Shown piece after piece: positions 16,135 through 58,949 of a stretch of DNA of 64,000 bases. Numbering within the stretch: the stretch's first letter is position 1; the number at the start of each line of letters is the position of its first letter. This DNA comes from Naegleria gruberi (Eukaryota), in the NCBI GenBank assembly GCA_000004985.1, contig GG738848.1. The stretch is one strand, 5' to 3'. The notes below the pieces were generated by a model. That model had not been told where the DNA came from, made no database searches, and worked only from the letters and a program-made list of their open reading frames with translations. A program made the translations under genes and the position numbers.

Positions 16135-16207
16135 GCTGGCGTAGCTCAGTCGGTAGAGCGTTGGTCTAATAAGCCATTGGTCGCCGGTTCGATCCCGTCC
16201 GTCAGCA
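16135..16207 (+). tRNA. tRNA-Ile (anticodon AAT)
   Basis: Hand-folded cloverleaf. Acceptor stem gctggcg/cgtcagc, D arm gctc-agtcggta-gagc, anticodon loop ctAATaa, T loop ggttcgatcc. A T-run follows at 16212. Confidence 0.9.
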
Positions 16208-23002: not shown

Positions 23003-23075
23003 TGGGGTCTGTGAGGATCGAACTCACGACCTTAGGATTATGAGACCTACGCGCTACCGACTGCGCCAAGACCCC
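23003..23075 (-). tRNA. tRNA-Met, elongator type (anticodon CAT), copy 1 of 3
   Basis: The reverse complement folds as a cloverleaf: ggggtct..agacccc acceptor stem, anticodon loop ctCATaa, T loop gagttcgatcctc. It is identical to the copies at 48226 and 51541. Confidence 0.92.
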
Positions 23076-31468: not shown

Positions 31469-34344
31469 ATGAGTAAAACCTACGATAAGGAAAAGAGAAA
31501 AAAAATCTTTGATGAAATTATTGATACTGAAGAGAAGTATTTACTTTCATTGGAGACGCTGAATAAGGTTTGTTTTTTCCGCATCAAATTCTTTTAATGA
31601 TGTTGATGGTGATGATAATTTTTATTATTGTTGTTGTATTTAATATTTAATTATTGTTGTATTAATGATGATGATGATGTTTTTTATTGTTGTTGTTGTT
31701 GTTGCTATATTATAATGATGATAATGATGGAAACTAACTCTCCGTAAAATTGTTGAAACTTTACAATATTAAATACTATTATATATAATATAATAACAAT
31801 TATTACAACGACGTGATATAGAATTATATTGTACCATTAAAAAAGAACAAGTACTTGAAATTTGGTAGAGAACTCAACTCTATTGTATCCAATCTGACAG
31901 TTATTGTCAATTTTAATAATCACTTGCTTTCTAAACTAAAACAAACGAATGAAGACGATATTGGTAAAACTTTCCAAATGATAATTCCCTTCCTAAAGAC
32001 CTACACCCAGTACTTTAGTAATTATGAAGCAGCATTGAATAGTATTAGGGAGGCAGATAAAAATCCAAAAAACAAACGATTTTCTGAATGGTTGAAAAAG
32101 ACTGATGATCGTGCTAAGGAACAGGGTCAACAAACTTTTAAACAATTATTGATTCAACCTGTTCAACGTATTCCAGTATGTTTTTTATTATATTCATTTC
32201 AGTTTTTAATAACTAACTCATACTCATTTAAATATATATTTAATTGTAAATCATATTCATTTAAATATTTGCATACATGTAAATGATTTGATTTGCCACA
32301 TTGTAACTTGTTAATAATTCTATCAAATGCAACTCTGTGAAATGTTGATATATCTATTCGAATGTATTAAATACAGCGTTACAATTTACTTTTATCGGAA
32401 GTTTTGAAGAATACACCAAAAACTCATGTCGATTATGAAAATTTGAGAAGTGCATCAGATAAGATGAAAGAAGTTGCAGATCACTTGAATAGACAAATTA
32501 CAGAAATTGAAAATAGAAACAAACTAATCAAATTGAAAGAAATTTTCGTTTTGAATAACACAGGCAAAGGTGTCATGACTAATATCGTTGAACCTCATCG
32601 TAAATATGTATTTGAAGGAGAGTTACATGTTTTGAGTGAAACTTCATCTATTAACAAGCAGAAGCATTACTTTTTCTTATTTAGTGATATTATGGTTTGT
32701 TGTAAGGAAGTTCCAGAAGAATTAAAGAGGAAATTAATTGAAGAAAAAAAGGCAGCTCAACAAAGTCAAGCTAATTCGAAAAAACTTGGAGGTCTCAAAA
32801 TATTTTCACGTAAATCGGATGCTGGTAACTCAGATACTGACCATAATCAATTTGGTGCATTTGATGATGATGAAAACGAAATTCCAGATCATTTCTATAC
32901 TATAACATTTACAATCAAATTTACTGATAAAATTGGAACGGGTAATACACCTGTCAGTTCACCAATGATGGCTGCCTCCACTCCAACAAGTCCTTCAATG
33001 GAAAGCTCAACCAACGTTGAAGAAATATGGGTCCGTGACTTTTCATTCATGGAAGGACGAAATTTCCAATTCCCAAATATTTTCCAATTGATAACAGGAA
33101 CTGAAACTTATACATTTGAATCAACTGATGCCAAGTCACGTGAGAAATGGGTTAACCATTTGAATAATACTTTGGATGAATTGAAAAAGAAGAAGAAAGA
33201 CACAACCAAAGATCGTGCAAAGGCAAAAGGTTTTCCAGTTGTTATGGTCAACTCGGCAGCTCTTGTTATTCAAGCTCTTGCTCGTGGTAAATTAACAAGA
33301 GGCAAGAAGGGAGACGTTGAAAATAGATTCAAACCTAGAAAGAAGACCACTAAGTTGAACACTAATCCATTAGGTGCTACTTCTCCATCTTCACCTACAG
33401 CTGATTCTATACCTACTGGACCTGTCACAATTGACCATACTGATGTTAATGTGACTGCTCCACCAGAAAAATCACCTAGACCAGTTGAAGAACCAATTGC
33501 AAAAGTTGAAGAACCAGTCACCAAACCAATTACACCACGTGTCATTGATGAAAATCCATCTCAAGAACCAACTAGTGTTATTGATGCTGCCACTATTCCA
33601 CCACAAACAAATGTCGTAGAAGAACCACAAGAAACATCAAAACCAGTAGAAGAACCAAAGCAAGTTGAAGTTGAAAAGCCAGTGGAAGAACCAATTGTGG
33701 AGAAACCAACAGAACCAGTTACAGAGCCATACGAGGACAATACTTCTACCACAACAACAGAAGAGGAACCAAAACCTGTTGAACCTGAAGTTGTGGATTC
33801 AGCAACAGTCGAAGAACCAAAGGTCAAGCAACCTGAAATTGAGGAACCAAAGCAACAAGTTGATCCAGGTATTACAACAACAATTGAAGAACCTGAAGAT
33901 GAAGAACCTGCCACACAGACAACTCCTGAATCAACCAATAATGATGCCATTAAGAAATCTCCTCGTGAATCCATCTCTGACGGTCTGAGATCACCTCTCT
34001 CCAGTCCAAGACTTTACAGAAAGGACAGTAATGAGGAATTCAAATCACCAACCAAAGAAGAAGATGAAGAAGTATACTTTGATGAGGAAGGAAATGTCTT
34101 ACCACCTTGGAAGGTTGAACTCATGAAGAAATTCAAAAAGTCAGGCAAATTCAATGCCATTCTTGCTCAACAAAATGATAACAAGAAGGTTGAAAAGAAG
34201 ATTGACATGCCAAATAAGAAGTTGCAATTAAATGCAATTCGTTCCATGTTTGAGGAGAAGGATAAACTTGCCAAAGAAGAAATGCACACTTTACGAAAGG
34301 CAAAGGAAAGTCCACAAAATACTTCATCTTCCTCTTTGAAATAA
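31469..34344 (+). CDS. RhoGEF (DH-PH) protein with IQ-like motif and PEVK-like acidic Pro/Glu repeat tail
   Basis: Exons 31469..31567, 31822..32175 and 32377..34344. The introns are 254 nt and 201 nt (GTTTGT..TAG and GTATGT..CAG), both phase 0. DH motifs span the junctions: IFDEIIDTEEKYLLSLETLNK | NYIVPL ... LIQPVQRIP | RYNLLLSEVLKNTPKTHVDYENL. A PH-like region follows (HYFFLFSDIMVCCK). The IQ-like motif is AALVIQALARGKLTRGKK. (V/I)EEP(K/I) repeats run through 33480..33930. Confidence 0.88.
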
Positions 34345-34449: not shown

Positions 34450-37400
34450 TTATTGTCTCTTGTATTTGATGATATATTCAGGATAGCACTGATATCTATC
34501 ATAGACAATCAATTCTCTATATGAATTACTTGTAGTATTTGATTGGCCAATCACACTATCAAAGACTCTTCTATTCTTTCCAACAATTTCTGGAGGTCTT
34601 CTTTGATTGGTCATTCCTTGGGGTGTGAAATAGACTTGTCTTCCCAAAACAACTCTACACAGGAATATAGTATATTCCTTATTAAGGTCTGGAGTGCAAT
34701 ATTGGTCACTCTTTGAACAATACTCAGCAAAATAAACTCCAGCTCCAAATAAACCACCCAAACTTGCAACTCTTTCATCAAATCCATGTTCTGAAATGGT
34801 TGAAACAAATTCAGGTTTTGTTCCGTGCCATAAGTACTTTTCATTCATTCCACTATTCAATCCAACTGTTTTCATCCATTCGTAGGATTTGCTTGTTTTT
34901 GGCAATAGTTCTGTTTGAACTTGGATTGTCTTGATAGGATCTTGATAAGATGTCAAATGATTCATTCTTGATTTGTATGAAGTGAAAAGTGTTGCATTTT
35001 CAATTCTTGAAACACTTGAAACAATTAATTTGGAATAATTCATTTTCACTTGTTGATCTCTACCAGTTCCAAGTGTTGCAGAATTACATGAAACATTGAC
35101 AATATCTTGAATGGTATTTTTCAAATATTTTGTAACATCCACAATGTAAAATCTTTTAGAATAGGATGTGAATGTATTTCTCTTCCAATAACTTGGCAAG
35201 ACAATATTCAATTGTCTAGATTTGGATTCTTCCAATTCCTTTTCCATGTCTTGTAATTTCTTTTCCTTACTTTTCAATCTGCTAATTTGATTTGTAATTT
35301 CTTCTCTTTCCTTAACACTTTGATTGGTGAATTCCTTTGTTTTCTGTTCAAGTTTCTTGATTTCTTGTGTGAGATTGGATTTATCTTGTTTGAGATTGAA
35401 TTTAACTTGATTCAATTGTTTTTCATATTCCTTCAATTGTTTTGATTGATTTGAAATGGATTTGACTTGTTCTTGAACTTTGATTTCATCCAAGAGAGTA
35501 TCCTTCAAAAAGAATTCACAAACAAGAGCATCTGATGCAAATGGTCTGTCATTTGGATCATTAGTCATACATTGTTGAACTAGAGTATTCAATGATGAGT
35601 AAGTATTCAATTCTTGAGCAGTCATACAATTCTTGATGGTTTTTCCAAATGCAAACATATCTGATTTGAATGTTGCTGATTGACCATTCATTAATTCAGG
35701 TGATAGATAGTCATATGTTCCAGAAACAGAAGTTCTAGTGTACAAATTCATTGTTCTACTTTGAACATCCAAACTAACATCAAAATCTCCCAAAATAATT
35801 GGATATAGACCATTGTTACATTCTCCAACAAATATATTCTCAGGTTTGATATCACAATGAATGACACCTCTGGAATGAATATGTTGAATGGCAATTAATA
35901 CTTGTCTCCATGTTCTTTCCCAAAAAAGTACTTCTAATTTGGTGGATTTTCTTTGTTTTTCAAGAAATTCCTTCAAATTACCATTCGAATAATATGGCAT
36001 TACAATATAAACATTGTTGGTGGAATGGCTATTATCATTAGACATGTAAAATCCTTCAATTTCAATAATATTGTTATGTTTCAACTTTTTTGTAATCTTG
36101 AGTTCTTTTTGTAAACTTTCCAATTTTTTGTTATCCTTGATTGAATATTGTTTAATGATATGTTTCTTATCGTTAATATCAGTTCCAATAAACAAGTGAT
36201 GATTTCCATTCCAATCTTGAATTGGCTTAATTTCTTTGAATAAATCGGCTGACATTTCTTCAATATTCATTGTGGATGCAATACTTGATGACAGGATTGA
36301 CTCAACATTGAATCCAATAGTTTTCAATTGGAGGAACTTCAACTTGATTTCATTTGTCTGTTCAATACATTCCTTGAGTACTTTCTTTTTTTCTTGTAAG
36401 GTTGTTTCCTTTTCTTTAATTTCATCCTCAATTTGCATGGATTCAGTCTTGTTTGTAACATGTACTAATTCATCTCTCAATCCATCAATGTCAAGTTTAA
36501 TAATGGTCAATTCTCTTGTTACTCTTGCTTTCTTTCTTTGTAAAGCAGAATATTGTTCTGTCAATTGCTTGTAATCATTCATAATGTTTACAATATTTTG
36601 CAATTGTTCATGTTGTTCAATAATGAATGGAATGGTTTCTTGAATGAGCTTGTTTCCATTATTAAATTGATTTTGATAATCACAATAAATTTGATAAATT
36701 CCAATTTGAACTAGTTCAGGAAGCAAATTTTTAGTATTAGAAATTGCTTTTTGTAATTCCAATTCCTCCTTTGAAAGCATTTCCATTGCAATCTCTAAAT
36801 TATTTGCAATTCCATTCAAATTAACACTTGTGGCATTATTAATGGATGATGCAATATTTTGTAATTGAGTTGAAATATTTTGTAAAACATTTTTGGATTT
36901 TCCTTCATAATTTGAATCTGTAGTTGAACCATTTAAACTTTTAAGTGTTTTTTGAATTTTTTCAATTGTTAATTCCTTATTTAGGTTATCATTAGCATTG
37001 TAATATTGTAATTGATCTTGATTCAAGTAATTTTGAACAAATTCATCAAATATTTGTAATTTTTCATCTAATGCTTGAATATAGCTATTCAATTGAATTA
37101 AATAATTTTCTGAATTAATTCTTTCTACTATATTTGTAATATTTAACATGTCATTATTAATTAAAGCCACATGTTCAACATTTTCAATATCACACTTATT
37201 ATTCATCAATCTATCATTAATAGTTGAACAACATTCGGATAAAACTCCATTAATTTTCGAATAAACTTGTTGTAGCTCAGTATCAAATGATAATTGATCT
37301 GAAAGTGGAATTACCGAATTCAATTGAGAAGTTACTTGTTTTCTATATTGAGAAACTTTCTCATTCAATGAACACAACTCTGTGAAAACTTGAAATACTG

Positions 37401-38571
37401 AAAGGAAAGTTTGTTTCTTTTCCTTTTCAATTCTTTCCTGTTCAAGTCTTTCGTTTTCAATTCTTTCTTGTTCGAATCTTATTTGATCAGCACGTTCCTT
37501 TTCAAGTCTCTTCTTTTCCAACATTTCTTTTGTAATTCTTTCCTTTTCAATTCTTTCCTTTTCGAGTTTGTCGACTTCTTGTTTAATTATGGAAATTGAT
37601 TTTCCATTAATTTTTAAATTGTTATCAACAACGATATTTGGGGAAGCAAGTAGCAATTTGACAATTTCTAAATTTCCTTTTTGGCAAGCAATAAACAAAG
37701 GAGTGAACTATATATGGTAATATAACTAAATTAATAAATTAAATTTACTTACATTCTAATAAAAATTAGTAAAAAATTTAAATAATAATTGATTGCTTAC
37801 ATTCTATAATGATACATTGAGTATTGAAATATTTCAAATAAATTTTTACTTACATACTAAAATTAATTAATTAAAAAAAATTAATAAAAAATTTTTACTT
37901 ACTCGCTATTTAAATTTTAAATAAAATTAAAAAATAATTAAATACTCACATCCTAATAAACAATATTAAAAAATCAATTAAATTTTACTTACAAACTAAA
38001 TAATATTAACATGTAAATAATAAAATATTATTACTTACAAACTATTATTTTAAAAATTATAAATTTTAAAAATTAAAGCACTTACTCTCTAATAATTATT
38101 TAATACATTTAAAATTAAGTATATTAAGTAATACCTACTTCCTATATAAATATTAAATAAAAAATCGACCATGTAAAATACTTACATACTAAAAATGGAA
38201 TTAAATAAAAAAATAAAATTTTTAACTTACAGTCTATTAAAAATTAAATAAACATTTAAATATAAAACACTCACACCCTACCATCATTAATATATCCAAT
38301 ACATTCACTTCATAACTACTTACACACTAAAAATGTCAACTGTCAACACAATAAATCAAATACTCACACCCTTGTTCACATTAATTTCTGCATAATTCAA
38401 CAATAATTTAACAATTTCCACGCGTCCATTTTCACAAGCATTATACAACATTGTCTTTCCTATTTTTCCATTAGAATATTCATTGATATCTGCTTTTTTA
38501 AACCATTGTTTAAATTCCTTGACATTTCCTGTGGAGGCAGCATCAAGTGCGTTCTCAAAGTTTTTGGACAT
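34450..38571 (-). CDS. Ankyrin repeat / coiled-coil / protein kinase / coiled-coil / PARP catalytic domain fusion protein
   Basis: The first exon is 38368..38571, with ATG at 38571 after an A-run; it encodes ANK repeat 1 (GKTMLYNACENGRVEIVKLLLNYAEINVNKG). The last exon is 34450..37707 and begins FTPLFIACQKGNLEIVKLLL (ANK repeat 2). Kinase motifs are HSRGVIHCDIKPENIF, LGDFDVS and YDYLSPE. PARP motifs are YLWHGTKPEFVSTISEHGFD, GAGVYFAEYCSKSDQY and YRELIVYD, so the H-Y-E positions are all present. The region between the two exons is the mini-intron array listed separately. Confidence 0.88.
37708..38367 (-). repeat. Tandem array of 14 intron-like units (40-50 nt) separated by 13 spacers of exactly 3 nt
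   Basis: Read on the minus strand, every unit is GT[AG]AGT (9 GTAAGT, 3 GTGAGT, 1 GTAGGT, 1 GTAAGC) ... AT-rich ... TAG. Unit lengths are 41, 46, 41, 42, 44, 50, 44, 43, 40, 44, 46, 50, 45 and 45 nt. The 3-nt spacers (plus-strand coordinates) are 38324-26 TGT, 38275-77 GGT, 38231-33 ACT, 38186-88 TAT, 38139-41 GAA, 38086-88 AGA, 38039-41 TTT, 37993-95 TTT, 37950-52 GAT, 37903-05 CGA, 37854-56 TAT, 37801-03 AAT and 37753-55 AAT. The sum 621 + 39 = 660 nt equals the gap between the flanking phase-0 exons. Confidence 0.85.
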
Positions 38572-38807: not shown

Positions 38808-40349
38808 TCAATGTCCAAAATATTCAATATCCAGCAAGAAGAGAGAAGACATTATAAGTGTTCTCTCAAAGGGAGTGGTTTCCATTAGGAAATTCACCTT
38901 AATATAATCAGGAGTGTAACCTTTCAATTCATAATCTGAATTGAATTTATGAGTGATTGTTGCTACATTCTCTCCCTCAATATTTCTCACTTGAAATTGA
39001 TCTAAAACATGCTTTTCACTTGGTTCTTCCTTTTTTCCATTTGATTTATGTTTTGTAATGATAAATAAGGTTGCATATTTGTACTTGTCATGACTGGATA
39101 AATTACCATTCGCTTGCTTTTTCACACCTTCAACAGTTTGAATCAAATATTGAGTTCTGAGAGAGTAGCTCTTTTTCATAACTCTTCCCAAATCTCTTCC
39201 ACTCTTTGGTTCAATAATTTCCAATTCTGTGGAGAATAAATGATAGGGATGAATCAAATCAATGACACGATAGCTTTGTACTGAGGGTTTGTGAAGTCCA
39301 TGCAATTGATCGAGGAAGGAAAGTTTATCCTCTCTCAAAAGTGGACTTGGATCCATCATGGATTGATTCTCTAGTCTGTCCATTTCATTTTGAGTATAAT
39401 ACATGGACGCTTTAAATTGACGCTTGTGTCCATAGGTTTCAAATTCTTGAGCTGTAGAAGTTTCGAACGCTTCACATTTGAGCCCATTATTCAATTTAAC
39501 AATATACTCATTTCCAAACTCTTCTTTTGGACTTGTCATTGTTTGAGTATGCATCATGGTTGTGTTGGCTGTTGTCATTGAACGATTGTTATGTGTTGGA
39601 TTTCTTCTCTTCTTTCTGTATAATCTAATTTTTGTAACATTATTGAGAATGGCATAGAAAATATCCCTTCTCTCCCTCAAGATTGAATCCAATAGAATGA
39701 TATTCTCTCTTGTAGTGCCTCTCTTCTTCTTACTTGTCATATTTTCAATGAGTCCTGATTCTATGGTATGTGATTGTTGATTCAATTTGTTTATAGCTGA
39801 TGATCCAATTGAAAGATTGGTGCTGCTTGTACTAATTGTTGATGGAGAGGAGCTGACTGAAGAACAAGCTGAAGTTGCATTTGATGCTGCAGCAGAATGG
39901 GAGGAAACTTTCATGATTGAGAAGTGGTTATTCTCTACCGGTGGTATCTGAACATTAAGATTCTTCTTTTTGTTTTCAATGTTTGTTATTGAAGCGCTCT
40001 TTGGAGGTATTTGAAGAGGTGGTCTATTGTTTTGAGGATCTTGTACATTAGTTGAGTTTCCAATATTTGGAATTGTTGTATTTGGAGCAATTAAGAGTTG
40101 TTGAGAATCTTCAGTTGGTGGAGTCTTAACAAAACTCAAATGTTTGGAAAGTTTTCTTGTATGGAGGAGTGGATTGGGATTTCCTTCTCTTGTTGCATTG
40201 TTTATAATTGTTACGTCTCCTCTATTGTCCAACAATGAATTCCCAAATATAGTGCTCGGTTGAGTTGTAGTCAATTGACCACATCCAAGCATAAGTGAAT
40301 GTGGTGTTTGATTTAAATTAGGTTGTCTGTAGATTTGGAGTGGTTCCAT
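38808..40349 (-). CDS. Hypothetical protein: low-complexity Ser/Thr/Asn-rich N-terminal half and a globular C-terminal domain (possibly tubby/LOR/scramblase-like fold)
   Basis: 513-aa ORF with an ATG start. The C-terminal end DYIKVNFLMETTPFERTLIMSSLFLLDIEYF resembles the terminal helix region of the LURP-one/tubby-like family. This is a weak assignment made from memory. Confidence 0.55.
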   Translation of the reverse strand: MEPLQIYRQPNLNQTPHSLMLGCGQLTTTQPSTIFGNSLLDNRGDVTIINNATREGNPNPLLHTRKLSKHLSFVKTPPTEDSQQLLIAPNTTIPNIGNSTNVQDPQNNRPPLQIPPKSASITNIENKKKNLNVQIPPVENNHFSIMKVSSHSAAASNATSACSSVSSSPSTISTSSTNLSIGSSAINKLNQQSHTIESGLIENMTSKKKRGTTRENIILLDSILRERRDIFYAILNNVTKIRLYRKKRRNPTHNNRSMTTANTTMMHTQTMTSPKEEFGNEYIVKLNNGLKCEAFETSTAQEFETYGHKRQFKASMYYTQNEMDRLENQSMMDPSPLLREDKLSFLDQLHGLHKPSVQSYRVIDLIHPYHLFSTELEIIEPKSGRDLGRVMKKSYSLRTQYLIQTVEGVKKQANGNLSSHDKYKYATLFIITKHKSNGKKEEPSEKHVLDQFQVRNIEGENVATITHKFNSDYELKGYTPDYIKVNFLMETTPFERTLIMSSLFLLDIEYFGH

Positions 40350-42507: not shown

Positions 42508-44382
42508 TTATTTCAAACCATCTAAACACAATTTTAAATCATTTTTAGAACAGGGCTTTAAGAGAATTTTGTCGAAAATTTCTCTACTTTGTTCTTCCTC
42601 TGCCGTCAGAACATTTCCTGTGATTAAAATTAGTTTGAAACTATTTCCGTATAATCTCCTTAATTCTTTTCCTGCTTCCAATCCGTTCATATTGGGCATA
42701 TTCTATTTACGCATAGTATTATATATTAATATCAATTAAATATTGGTAATGAAACAAACCATATCTGTAAATACAATTTTGTGATTTTTGTAATTGTCTA
42801 AAAGCTCGCGTCCATCTGAAACTGAATCTGCAGCATATCCCAAGGTACTGAGCATTTTTAAAAGGATTTTTCTATTAACTGGATTATCTTCTGCGAGTAT
42901 GATTTCATTTTCTGATTGTTTGGAACTGGAAGCAGCTGATGAAAGTCTTAAATGTTCCTCATGAATTGTCAATTGTGACTCTACAATCCGTTCCACTGTT
43001 ACTGATTCATTATCAACAAAGTCAGCAAGTTCAAATGGTATTGTAACAGCAAAGTCACTTCCAACTCCAACTGTTGAGTCAACATTAATGGTTCCTTTCA
43101 TATGATTTAATAATATGGAAACAGTTGTTAATCCTAATCCCGAACTTGGTACCTTTGATTCATTATTATTATCCAGTTGGACAAATGGCTCAAATATTTT
43201 GGAAATCAATTCTTTAGGAATTCCCTTTCCCTTGTCTGATATTTTAAATTCAATTTTGGCTGATTTTTCATTCTTTTCCAAGATAGTAGCAGTTAGAGTT
43301 ACATTTGATTTAGGCTTGGATGCCTTGATAGAGTTAGTTAATAAATTAGAGAGTATTTGATAAATGTAAGATCTGTTGCTTTTCACTATCGTATGTGAGA
43401 GTGAATCACAAATAAAATTTAGGTTGATTTCGAATTGCTTTGCATATCCTGAAATAATATTTTGAAGATCAAAGAGACATTTTTCCAGTTCAAAACTTTC
43501 CTTCTTAATTTCATGATCAATTTTTTCTTGGTTAGTTTCATTCTCAATTCTAATTATTTGCAAAATATCCTCAATTAATAGAAGTAAAACATTGTTCGAG
43601 GAAAGGGCCATATCCACTAATTCTGTTTGTGATGAATTTAATTTAGTTTCCTTCAGTAATTCTAAGCATCCTCTGCTTGACATTATAGGACATCTAAATT
43701 CATGTGAGACATGACTCAGAAATGTATTCCTGACCGTTAAAGCTTCCTCCAATTTGGCCCTAGTTTGCTCCAACTTTTCAACCTTCATTGATAGGTATCC
43801 AGTTACGTTGACCAAACTATAAGTTAAAATCCAAAACGAGGCAGCCAATCCAAATGATTCACACAATGAAGTAATCATGTCTACCGTTAATCCGTTAGCA
43901 ATATAGTCCACTATCCCAGTATAAATTCCACATGAAACAAACAGTGTAGTAAAATATAGAGTTGGTATCAGTCCCAGAACTGTTGATTGTAAATACCACT
44001 TATTCTCAAATAGTAACCATATTATCACAGCAGGAATGAACAAAATCTTATTCGATTTGAACAAGAAATACCGTATAGTTGCCGAAACAACCCTTCCCAG
44101 CAGAATATGCCAATCCATTGTCTTGGTTGTATCCTCATTATTTAAAATATTGGCAAGACTCGATCTATTAGAAACAAACAAAAACAAGGCTATTGAAATA
44201 TTCAACAAATTCCCTATCCAATCCAAAGAAACCAATCCATATACTATTGCCAATACATTACAAATCATTAAACTCAAAACAACTCCTTTAGGTGATGAAA
44301 TCATCCTTAACAATTTCAATTCCCATTCACTTCCTTTCCTAGCTGCCACAAAATCATATACTTTAAATTCTTTCCTATTCAT
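42508..44382 (-). CDS. Hybrid sensor histidine kinase (multi-TM N-terminus, HisKA, HATPase_c, receiver domain)
   Basis: Exons 42760..44382 and 42508..42702. The intron 42703..42759 is 57 nt (GTTTGT..TAG), phase 0, and splits the receiver at FTDM|NMPNMNG. The H-box is FLSHVSHEFRCPI. The G-boxes are SDKGKGIP and SSGLGLTTV. Receiver residues are ILAEDNPVNRKI, FTDMNMP and LLKP. Confidence 0.88.
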
Positions 44383-48225: not shown

Positions 48226-48298
48226 TGGGGTCTGTGAGGATCGAACTCACGACCTTAGGATTATGAGACCTACGCGCTACCGACTGCGCCAAGACCCC
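48226..48298 (-). tRNA. tRNA-Met, elongator type (anticodon CAT), copy 2 of 3
   Basis: The 73 nt are identical to the copies at 23003..23075 and 51541..51613. Confidence 0.92.
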
Positions 48299-51540: not shown

Positions 51541-51613
51541 GGGGTCTTGGCGCAGTCGGTAGCGCGTAGGTCTCATAATCCTAAGGTCGTGAGTTCGATC
51601 CTCACAGACCCCA
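51541..51613 (+). tRNA. tRNA-Met, elongator type (anticodon CAT), copy 3 of 3
   Basis: The sequence is ggggtcttggcgcagtcggtagcgcgtaggtctCATaatcctaaggtcgtgagttcgatcctcacagacccca. A T-run terminator follows immediately (tctttttt). Confidence 0.93.
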
Positions 51614-51937: not shown

Positions 51938-52009
51938 GGGACCATGGTCTAGTGGTATGATTTTTGCTTTGGGTGCGAGAGGCCGTGGGTTCGATTCCCA
52001 CTGGTCCCC
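51938..52009 (+). tRNA. tRNA-Pro (anticodon TGG)
   Basis: Acceptor stem gggacca/tggtccc, anticodon loop ttTGGgt, T loop gggttcgattccc. The sequence is close to canonical eukaryotic tRNA-Pro. Confidence 0.9.
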
Positions 52010-52102: not shown

Positions 52103-52174
52103 TAGCAAATCTAGGTTTCGATCCTAGGACCTATGGGTTATGAGCCCATCGCGCTTCCGCTGCGCCAATTTGCT
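52103..52174 (-). tRNA. Initiator tRNA-Met (anticodon CAT)
   Basis: The reverse complement is agcaaattggcgcagcggaagcgcgatgggctCATaacccataggtcctaggatcgaaacctagatttgcta. It has an A1:U72 pair, three G:C pairs closing the anticodon stem, and an A-rich T loop (GATCGAAAC). These are all eukaryotic initiator hallmarks. Confidence 0.9.
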
Positions 52175-54290: not shown

Positions 54291-54371
54291 TGCAGAAGGT
54301 GGGATTTGAACCCACGAAGCTTGCGCAGTAGAACTTGAGTCTACCCCCTTTGACCACTCGGGAACCCCTGC
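54291..54371 (-). tRNA. tRNA-Leu (anticodon CAA), class II with long variable arm, no intron
   Basis: The reverse complement is gcaggggttcccgagtggtcaaagggggtagactCAAgttctactgcgcaagcttcgtgggttcaaatcccaccttctgca. Confidence 0.88.
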
Positions 54372-58875: not shown

Positions 58876-58949
58876 GCAGCGATAGATCAGTTGGTTAGAT
58901 CGTAAGCCTAACACGCTTAAGGTCGCGGGTTCAAGCCCCGCTCGCTGTA
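58876..58949 (+). tRNA. tRNA-Val (anticodon AAC)
   Basis: Acceptor stem gcagcga/tcgctgt with a G1:U72 wobble, D arm gatc-agttggtta-gatc, anticodon loop ctAACac, T arm gcggg-ttcaagc-cccgc. Confidence 0.85.

Follow-up and report, generated by a model that had tools for sequence, protein, structure and literature searches.

A heterolobosean gene with protein kinase and PARP catalytic domains, its eukaryotic relatives and a candidate array of minimal introns

Gene structure and domain content

The window analysed here is a gene-dense, eukaryotic stretch of 64,000 nt from Naegleria gruberi contig GG738848.1, with a G+C content of about 33%. On its minus strand lies a gene that specifies two enzyme domains, a protein kinase domain and a poly(ADP-ribose) polymerase (PARP) catalytic domain, and that runs from an ATG at 38571 to a stop codon at 34452–34450 (Table 1). 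The ATG is the first one past the stop of the upstream gene at 38808, and the convergent neighbour gene ends at 34344. The locus is a single heterolobosean gene with a product of about 1153–1166 aa, hereafter the window protein. An earlier note on this DNA, made from the letters alone, had called one gene here and was right in its coordinates and strand; every motif it quoted (HCDIKPEN, DFD, SPE, LWHGT, GVYFAE and RELIVYD) is found in the translation. It was silent on the gap of about 660 nt (38367–37708) that separates the two ankyrin-coding exons.

Both exons carry an ankyrin repeat. Exon 1 matched three Pfam models (Ank_2, E 8.4e-8; Ank_3, E 3.4e-6; Ank, E 1.3e-5), all over their curated thresholds, and the second repeat, encoded at the beginning of the large exon, aligns to the third ankyrin repeat of the N. 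gruberi protein P0001. A motif scan of the 1085 codons of the large exon found no stops and no GTRAGY donor motifs, so that no candidate intron separates the kinase from the PARP domain; hidden introns within the exon were dismissed, since the GTRAGY motif is absent. Searches with hidden Markov models for Pkinase, PARP and Ank, which the earlier note had proposed, placed all three domain types above the Pfam gathering score. Residue numbers such as D687 and H1029 refer to a 1153-aa model without micro-exons.

The PARP part scored 78.2 bits with Pfam PF00644 (cut-off 26.7, E 7.5e-22) and opens at a conserved LPSYWK motif. In a HMMER alignment to tankyrase-1 (E 2.8e-16), LWHGT, GVYFAE and YRELIVY stand opposite LFHGS, GIYFAE and YAEYVIY, which places H961, Y992 and E1065 of the large exon on the catalytic histidine-tyrosine-glutamate (H-Y-E) triad; in the 1153-aa model these are H1029 (LWHGT), Y1060 (GVYFAE) and E1133 (RELIVYD). 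The AlphaFold model of this part has a mean predicted local distance difference test score (pLDDT) of 89.9 and a predicted template modelling score (pTM) of 0.89, and its top Foldseek matches are tankyrase-1/2 and PARP15 (E about 3e-16, target-normalised template modelling score 0.75–0.84). The expectation of a C-terminal PARP domain with an intact triad is thus borne out both by the alignment and by the ADP-ribosyl transferase (ART) fold of the model. A Pfam scan of the protein found no WGR, PARP1-type helical, SAM, macro or WWE domain. A PARP1-like enzyme was considered and dismissed, with no WGR, helical domain (HD), zinc-finger or BRCT matches in Pfam.

The kinase domain, of Ser/Thr type, scored 114.3 bits with Pfam PF00069 (Pkinase; cut-off 31.7, E 8.3e-33). 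Present in it are the beta3 Lys (IIK), the alphaC Glu (KELK), HCDIKPEN (D687), DFD (D709) and SPE (737–739), with HCD substituted for HRD and DFD for DFG. A Ser/Thr-kinase-like domain with HCDIKPEN, DFD and SPE had been predicted, and the profile score and the presence of the catalytic residues agree with this. The alignment contains no GxGxxG ATP loop, either in the window protein, which reads WNGNHHLFIG, or in any family member examined. The closest kinases in the PDB by sequence are NEK1, ULK1, NEK7 and PKR, at around 1e-18 to 1e-16, and by structure the top matches are PKR (27% identity), NEK1 and PERK.

Upstream of the kinase, AlphaFold predicts helices at large-exon residues 38–139, 143–294, 300–377, 379–416 and 420–463. 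The pLDDT is about 45–55 in the first part of this region and about 85–93 at residues 370–463; the three long helices of residues 300–463 (pLDDT about 90) lead directly into the kinase. Residues 38–139 are charged (the fraction of E, K, R and Q is 0.44–0.58 in 50-aa windows) and are modelled with low confidence. The region had been described as about 450 aa of coiled coil; it is indeed predicted to be helical throughout (about 430 aa), but is coiled-coil-like only at residues 38–139. It is conserved in the Naegleria paralogues P0001, P0037 and P0181. The second coiled coil, said to lie between kinase and PARP, corresponds to a predicted two-helix hairpin (738–792 and 798–831) with the same E, K, R and Q fraction of 0.44–0.58.

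Table 1. Features of the kinase-PARP gene and of its surroundings (positions in the window).
Feature	Position	Strand	Description
Exon 1	38368–38571	−	Opens with the ATG; 68 aa (MSKNFENALD...EINVNKG), ankyrin repeat 1
Array of 14 intron-like units	37708–38367	−	Between exon 1 and large exon; about 660 nt
Large exon	34450–37707	−	1085 codons, uninterrupted; kinase and PARP both inside
Second ankyrin repeat, FTPLFIACQKGNLEIVKLLLASPNI	37633–37707	−	Opens large exon, residues 1–25; Pfam Ank, E 4.7e-5
All-helical region (predicted)	36319–37596	−	Large-exon residues 38–463
Protein kinase domain	35503–36255	−	Large-exon residues about 485–735; Pfam Pkinase
Helical hairpin, second coiled-coil segment (predicted)	35215–35496	−	Large-exon residues 738–831, about 95 aa
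PARP/ARTD catalytic domain	34453–35202	−	Large-exon residues about 836–1085; Pfam PARP
Stop codon	34450–34452	−	End of open reading frame (ORF)
Upstream neighbour	38808–40349	−	513-aa ORF; weak scramblase-like C-terminus
Hybrid histidine kinase	42736–44382	−	ORF with HisKA, HATPase_c and partial receiver
tRNA gene	16135–16207		
tRNA gene	23003–23075		
tRNA gene	48226–48298		
tRNA gene	51541–51613		
tRNA gene	51938–52009		
tRNA gene	52103–52174		
tRNA gene	54291–54371		
tRNA gene	58876–58949		

A family of kinase-PARP proteins

A 606-residue query covering the kinase-to-PARP span was scanned with HMMER against 1.84 billion representatives. Many proteins matched the whole span in one alignment (among them P0037, P0039, P0040, P0056, P0059 and P0107), P0037 with 51% identity over query residues 3–605. 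Pfam found Pkinase followed by PARP in 16 of 16 relatives tested. The survey of domain architectures across eukaryotes that had been suggested earlier was made as a local scan of the 184 retrieved proteins, 71 of which have both domains, always with the kinase before the PARP and in most cases with the PARP end at or near the C-terminus. The shared motifs are HCDIKP-N, DFD-S-D---R, P-YW, GFDER and RRPP, and the H-Y-E triad is conserved in the family alignment. In the kinase, family-wide conservation, down to about 20–30% identity, covers the beta3 Lys, the alphaC Glu, the Asp of HCD, the loop Asn, APE and the first Asp of DFD; the H, Y and E of the PARP are conserved over the same range. DFD in place of DFG is a signature of the family. 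The linker between kinase and PARP is helical and variable, commonly 50–270 aa.

Annotated members are known from N. fowleri (XP_044563143.1, FDP41_002250; XP_044563812.1, FDP41_002169) and N. lovaniensis (XP_044552390.1). The N. fowleri fusions surfaced in the exhaustive HMMER scan; a word-based search with the full-length protein was dominated by low-complexity coiled-coil words. Transcriptomes supplied members from the cryptophytes Hanusia phi and Hemiselmis rufescens, the amoebozoan Nolandella, the choanoflagellates Bicosta minor and Hartaetosiga gracilis, the kinetoplastid Apiculatamorpha spiralis, and Ancyromonas sigmoides, and further members are found among TSA and MMETSP transcripts. 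Support for the fusion from single transcripts therefore comes from homologues in other species. In addition, the metagenomic fragment P0010 spans the end of the kinase, the linker and the PARP domain.

The N-terminal modules differ between members: ankyrin repeats in the window protein, P0001 and P0040, a staphylococcal nuclease (SNase) domain in P0037, WD40 in P0041 and DUF4116 in P0044. The pattern across the aligned proteins is that of a constant C-terminal module (kinase, helical linker, PARP) behind interchangeable N-terminal domains. The WD40 repeats of P0041 form an N-terminal propeller, and the A. spiralis transcripts P0044 and P0047 carry up to 22 DUF4116 repeats at their N-termini (22 in P0044).

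The earlier note had described the architecture as unfamiliar from characterised proteins. In this it was correct, in that full-text literature searches found no paper on a kinase-PARP fusion, no characterised protein was found, and structure comparison found no solved structure that covers both catalytic domains; the architecture is, however, not peculiar to the window gene but belongs to a large family spread over several supergroups. As far as sequence comparison can establish, the kinase-PARP architecture is confirmed to be real and widespread. It is functionally uncharacterised, with members already deposited in NCBI and UniProt.

The relatives within Naegleria are of two kinds. The N. 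fowleri and N. lovaniensis proteins have the same order of parts as the window protein (helical stalk, kinase, helical linker, PARP), align to it in one piece with 44–51% identity (the N. fowleri relatives are about 51% identical over the kinase-to-PARP span), and share the motifs HCDIKPEN, DFDVS, PSYWK, LWHGT, YFAE and E-x-IVYD. They differ at the N-terminus, which is ankyrin in the window gene and P0001 and staphylococcal-nuclease-like in XP_044563143.1. These entries are named 'hypothetical protein' or 'Poly [ADP-ribose] polymerase', and no study of them was found.

The N. gruberi models, on the other hand, cover one part or the other. P0001 (788 aa), with ankyrin repeats, helical region and kinase, matches the first two thirds of the window protein better than any other homologue (62% identity in the kinase, 38% upstream of it), and its stop lies 15 residues past the end of the homology. 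Against the PARP part, P0008 (265 aa) shows 85% and P0009 76% identity, the range for P0008, P0009 and P0011 being 66–85%. The start codons of P0008 and P0009 are internal Met codons, placed by alignment within the linker/PARP region of the window protein (in the alignment, 'MEMDLEESKSKQLNIVLPSYW' of P0008 stands opposite 'DMEKELEESKSRQLNIVLPSYW'), and such starts are a signature of truncated models. P0001 and P0009 are both listed with a scaffold length of 371401. Judged from these alignments, the N. gruberi kinase and PARP models appear to be split or truncated kinase-PARP genes.

Citarelli et al. (2010; PMC2964712) listed the N. gruberi models 72525 and 80603 as short PARPs without N-terminal domains, falling in no clade and keeping H-Y-E. 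Split annotation is probably the reason why N. gruberi PARPs were described at that time as short orphans. The comparison suggests that at least some of these 'orphan' PARPs are the truncated ends of kinase fusions, the likeness to P0008, P0009 and P0011 being one of description and not of model number. Perina et al. (2014; PMC4245714) reported combinations of ankyrin and PARP in N. gruberi, with the kinase not mentioned.

Tandem intron-like units and neighbouring genes

The region between exon 1 and the large exon is made up of 14 consecutive intron-like units of 40–50 nt, spaced by exactly 3 nt. Each of the 14 begins with a donor of the form GT[AG][AG]G[TC] and ends with a TAG acceptor. The 13 putative exons of 3 nt between them are TGT GGT ACT TAT GAA AGA TTT TTT GAT CGA TAT AAT AAT, which read CGTYERFFDRYNN with no stop and would lengthen the loop between the two ankyrin repeats. 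Together, the last five triplets and the beginning of the large exon read DRYNN-FTPLF, similar to DYRDY-SPLY in the corresponding position in N. gruberi. Candidate introns in the remainder of the window are mostly 43–54 nt long, and these shorter ones have the same size as the array units.

In the 64-kb window the junction motif TAGNNNGTRRGY was counted 17 times, compared to 1.0 ± 0.94 expected; 13 occurrences are in the array and four in tRNA genes. Across the units, sequence information is limited to the splice signals (donor +1 to +7, acceptor −3 to −1), and the interiors are at background. The array is not a young minisatellite, and the signals appear to have been maintained. Any pairing of donor and acceptor keeps the frame, so that 0 to 13 extra residues are possible and the exact sequence of the linker between the ankyrin repeats is uncertain. 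The array is best described as a candidate set of tandem minimal introns with 3-nt exons, judged from its splice signals, which would be a very unusual gene structure.

No paper on tandem arrays of 3-nt exons was found in the literature. A metagenome scan for arrays returned at least 120 loci, nearly all of them (AGTA)n microsatellites and ordinary minisatellites; among the matches listed the only comparable array was L026, and the frequency of such arrays is not estimable from that scan. L026 (metagenome contig Ga0075163_10428290, minus strand, about 470–260) comes from an unrelated, ciliate-like organism and has nine putative introns of 19–22 nt separated by exons of 3 or 6 nt, inside a region that, judged by eye, appears SPRY-like. 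Removal of all nine introns leaves one open frame across the region in a ciliate genetic code, reading ...FYGYKGRVSCGGGDIYWLKISQKQGTGKNKKYG...; in-frame TAA/TAG and TGA are present in this organism.

The window contains eight tRNA genes (Table 1). Four of these are tRNA-Met(CAT), and three of the four share the 12-mer TAGCGCGTAGGT. Outside the array, the splice-junction pattern is present only in three tRNA-Met genes and one tRNA-Val gene. The C-terminus of the upstream neighbour of the kinase-PARP gene matched the scramblase family with a Pfam E value of 6.9e-5, below the gathering score, and a word-indexed search with its C-terminal 235 aa found no homologue; it may be a lineage-specific gene. 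The hybrid histidine kinase ORF lies two ORFs upstream of the kinase-PARP gene.

Enzyme activities and possible mechanism

The whole is best explained by one dual-enzyme gene belonging to a broad eukaryotic family, together with a proposed mechanism driven by assembly, a reading that is given a probability of about 0.8. Several observations weigh against it. The AlphaFold model of the full large exon (pLDDT 73.6, pTM 0.48) does not predict how the domains pack. The N. gruberi annotation separates the kinase model P0001 (788 aa) from the PARP model P0009 (220 aa). The family lacks GxGxxG and has DFD, so that nucleotide binding without phosphotransfer is possible, and some annotated relatives are without pieces of the kinase (P0181 has no HCD segment, and P0039 is missing part of the activation segment). 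Finally, the oligomerisation-driven mechanism is argued purely by analogy.

Tankyrases are the best match of the window PARP part in both sequence and structure. Both have an N-terminal ankyrin region, end at the extreme C-terminus in a PARP domain, and share H-Y-E, GFDER, SKS-QY and the lack of a PARP1-type helical domain; by analogy, the activity of the window protein may also require self-association via a region outside the catalytic domain. The differences are considerable: two ankyrin repeats, one per exon, in the window protein compared to the five clusters (about 24 repeats) of tankyrase; a helical hairpin and no Pfam match to SAM in the position where tankyrase has a SAM domain before the catalytic domain; and gaps where the Cys/His segment of the tankyrase zinc-binding insertion aligns. 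Unlike tankyrases, the window protein also includes a kinase and helical regions totalling about 500 aa, and identity in the structural alignment is about 23%. It is tankyrase-like in the catalytic domain only. Tankyrase identity was dismissed, as the ankyrin clusters, the SAM domain and the zinc motif are all missing.

A tankyrase-like ART has been described in N. fowleri (NfTNKSL; Sowa et al. 2022, PMC9688111), a stand-alone enzyme with a zinc motif and no other domains. Like the window protein, NfTNKSL is a Naegleria ARTD nearer to the tankyrase catalytic domain than to other PARPs; the window protein differs in having no zinc motif and in the position of its PARP domain behind a kinase. 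By their descriptions the two are set apart, and the window protein probably belongs to a different Naegleria PARP lineage. The clade-3 enzymes PARP12, PARP14 and PARP15 give comparable fold scores and likewise have a compact ART domain with an N-terminal strand-helix extension. Their catalytic Glu is replaced, whereas the kinase-PARP family has kept it, and their accessory domains (macro, WWE, zinc fingers) differ from those of the window protein.

The earlier note had associated an intact H-Y-E with poly-ADP-ribosylation, but the triad, while necessary, does not predict polymer: PARP3 has H-Y-E and is a mono-transferase. As read from the sequence, H-Y-E does not discriminate between mono- and poly-ADP-ribose as the product, and the step from the triad to polymer is too strong. 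That the window enzyme transfers single ADP-ribose units despite its H-Y-E is given somewhat less than even odds; in that case the earlier association with polymer would be wrong, with the other parts of the reading unaffected. Such an activity would fit the clade-3 enzymes PARP15, PARP12 and PARP14, which match the fold about as well as tankyrase does, and the lack of a PARP1-type helical or WGR domain and of the tankyrase zinc motif; the example of PARP3 points the same way. It fits less well with the best sequence and structure matches, which are to tankyrases, makers of polymer, or with the presence of the catalytic Glu in every full-length member aligned, the residue that clade-3 mono-transferases have replaced.

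A second alternative concerns the kinase, which could be a regulatory pseudokinase or a nucleotide sensor that controls the C-terminal PARP through the helical linker. In receptor guanylyl cyclases, a kinase-homology domain controls the cyclase via a coiled coil; in IRE1 and RNase L, a kinase-like domain controls a KEN nuclease, and RNase L also has ankyrin repeats at its start. The window protein follows the same logic as IRE1, RNase L, the receptor guanylyl cyclases, PKR and PERK (a sensor, a kinase fold, a linker and an output), and PKR and PERK are among the top structural matches of its kinase domain. Its output, an ADP-ribosyl transferase, is found in none of these proteins, and the likeness is one of the generic kinase fold, with no further sequence relationship shown. 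A regulatory role would agree with this layout of a sensor, a kinase fold, a helical linker and a C-terminal enzyme, with the non-canonical glycine loop in every family member examined and with DFD for DFG, as well as with the loss of kinase segments from P0181 and P0039, both of which have the PARP intact. However, the residues that pseudokinases usually lose (beta3 Lys, alphaC Glu, Asp, Asn, the Asp of DFD, and APE) are conserved at 20–50% identity, and a linker that varies from roughly 18 to 548 residues is a poor fit to a rigid signalling helix. This alternative, though a serious contender, is considered unlikely, and the pattern of residues favours an active, if atypical, kinase.

It is very improbable that the kinase and the PARP domain belong to neighbouring genes, or to a decaying fusion, in frame by chance, with an internal promoter or polyA site near 35200: the separate N. 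gruberi models, with P0001 ending 15 residues past the homology and P0008 and P0009 starting in the linker/PARP, would agree with it, but the 1085 codons are open in DNA of about 30% G+C, the internal Met starts are those of truncated models, and the linker and PxYW junction are conserved and run on without a break in N. fowleri and N. lovaniensis, in the fragment P0010 and in many ORFs from transcripts. What lies near 35200 is the junction of the hairpin with the PxYW start of the PARP domain, and read-through there is seen both in the transcriptome-derived ORFs and in the metagenomic fragment P0010.

For a dual-enzyme protein acting by assembly, the following course of events can be proposed. 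The N-terminal module would select a ligand or partner, and the long helices would gather copies of the protein by self-association. Proximity could then activate the kinase through trans-autophosphorylation, as dimerisation does for PKR and PERK, and could likewise activate the PARP, in the manner of tankyrase polymerisation through SAM. A single assembly event would in this way place phosphate and ADP-ribose on the protein itself and on proteins nearby. The earlier description of a combined 'signalling or stress module' is a reasonable guess. A stronger proposal, that the kinase-linker-PARP module is an ancient, hitherto unrecognised signalling device, spread from heteroloboseans and kinetoplastids to cryptophytes, amoebozoans, ancyromonads and choanoflagellates, in which kinase and PARP are both active and functionally coupled on shared targets, with swappable N-termini as sensors, is tentative, and the odds are against it in this full form. 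If the activities are coupled, phosphorylation may gate or compete with serine ADP-ribosylation, or one mark may switch the other enzyme on; if the proposal is true, the ankyrin, WD40, DUF4116 and SNase N-termini would sense a ligand or target, like the sensor domains of innate immunity.

Crosstalk between phosphorylation and ADP-ribosylation is usually studied between separate enzymes, and a conserved natural fusion of the two writers would offer a compact system in which to study their coordination. The family is present in several supergroups, including choanoflagellates, the nearest unicellular relatives of animals. The array of 14 intron-like units is a candidate case of extreme gene structure. 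For Naegleria, the record is corrected in that much larger kinase fusions are the probable source of the N. gruberi 'short orphan PARPs', which would be their ends, and in the pathogen N. fowleri the family comprises proteins with two druggable catalytic domains and no human counterpart of the same architecture.

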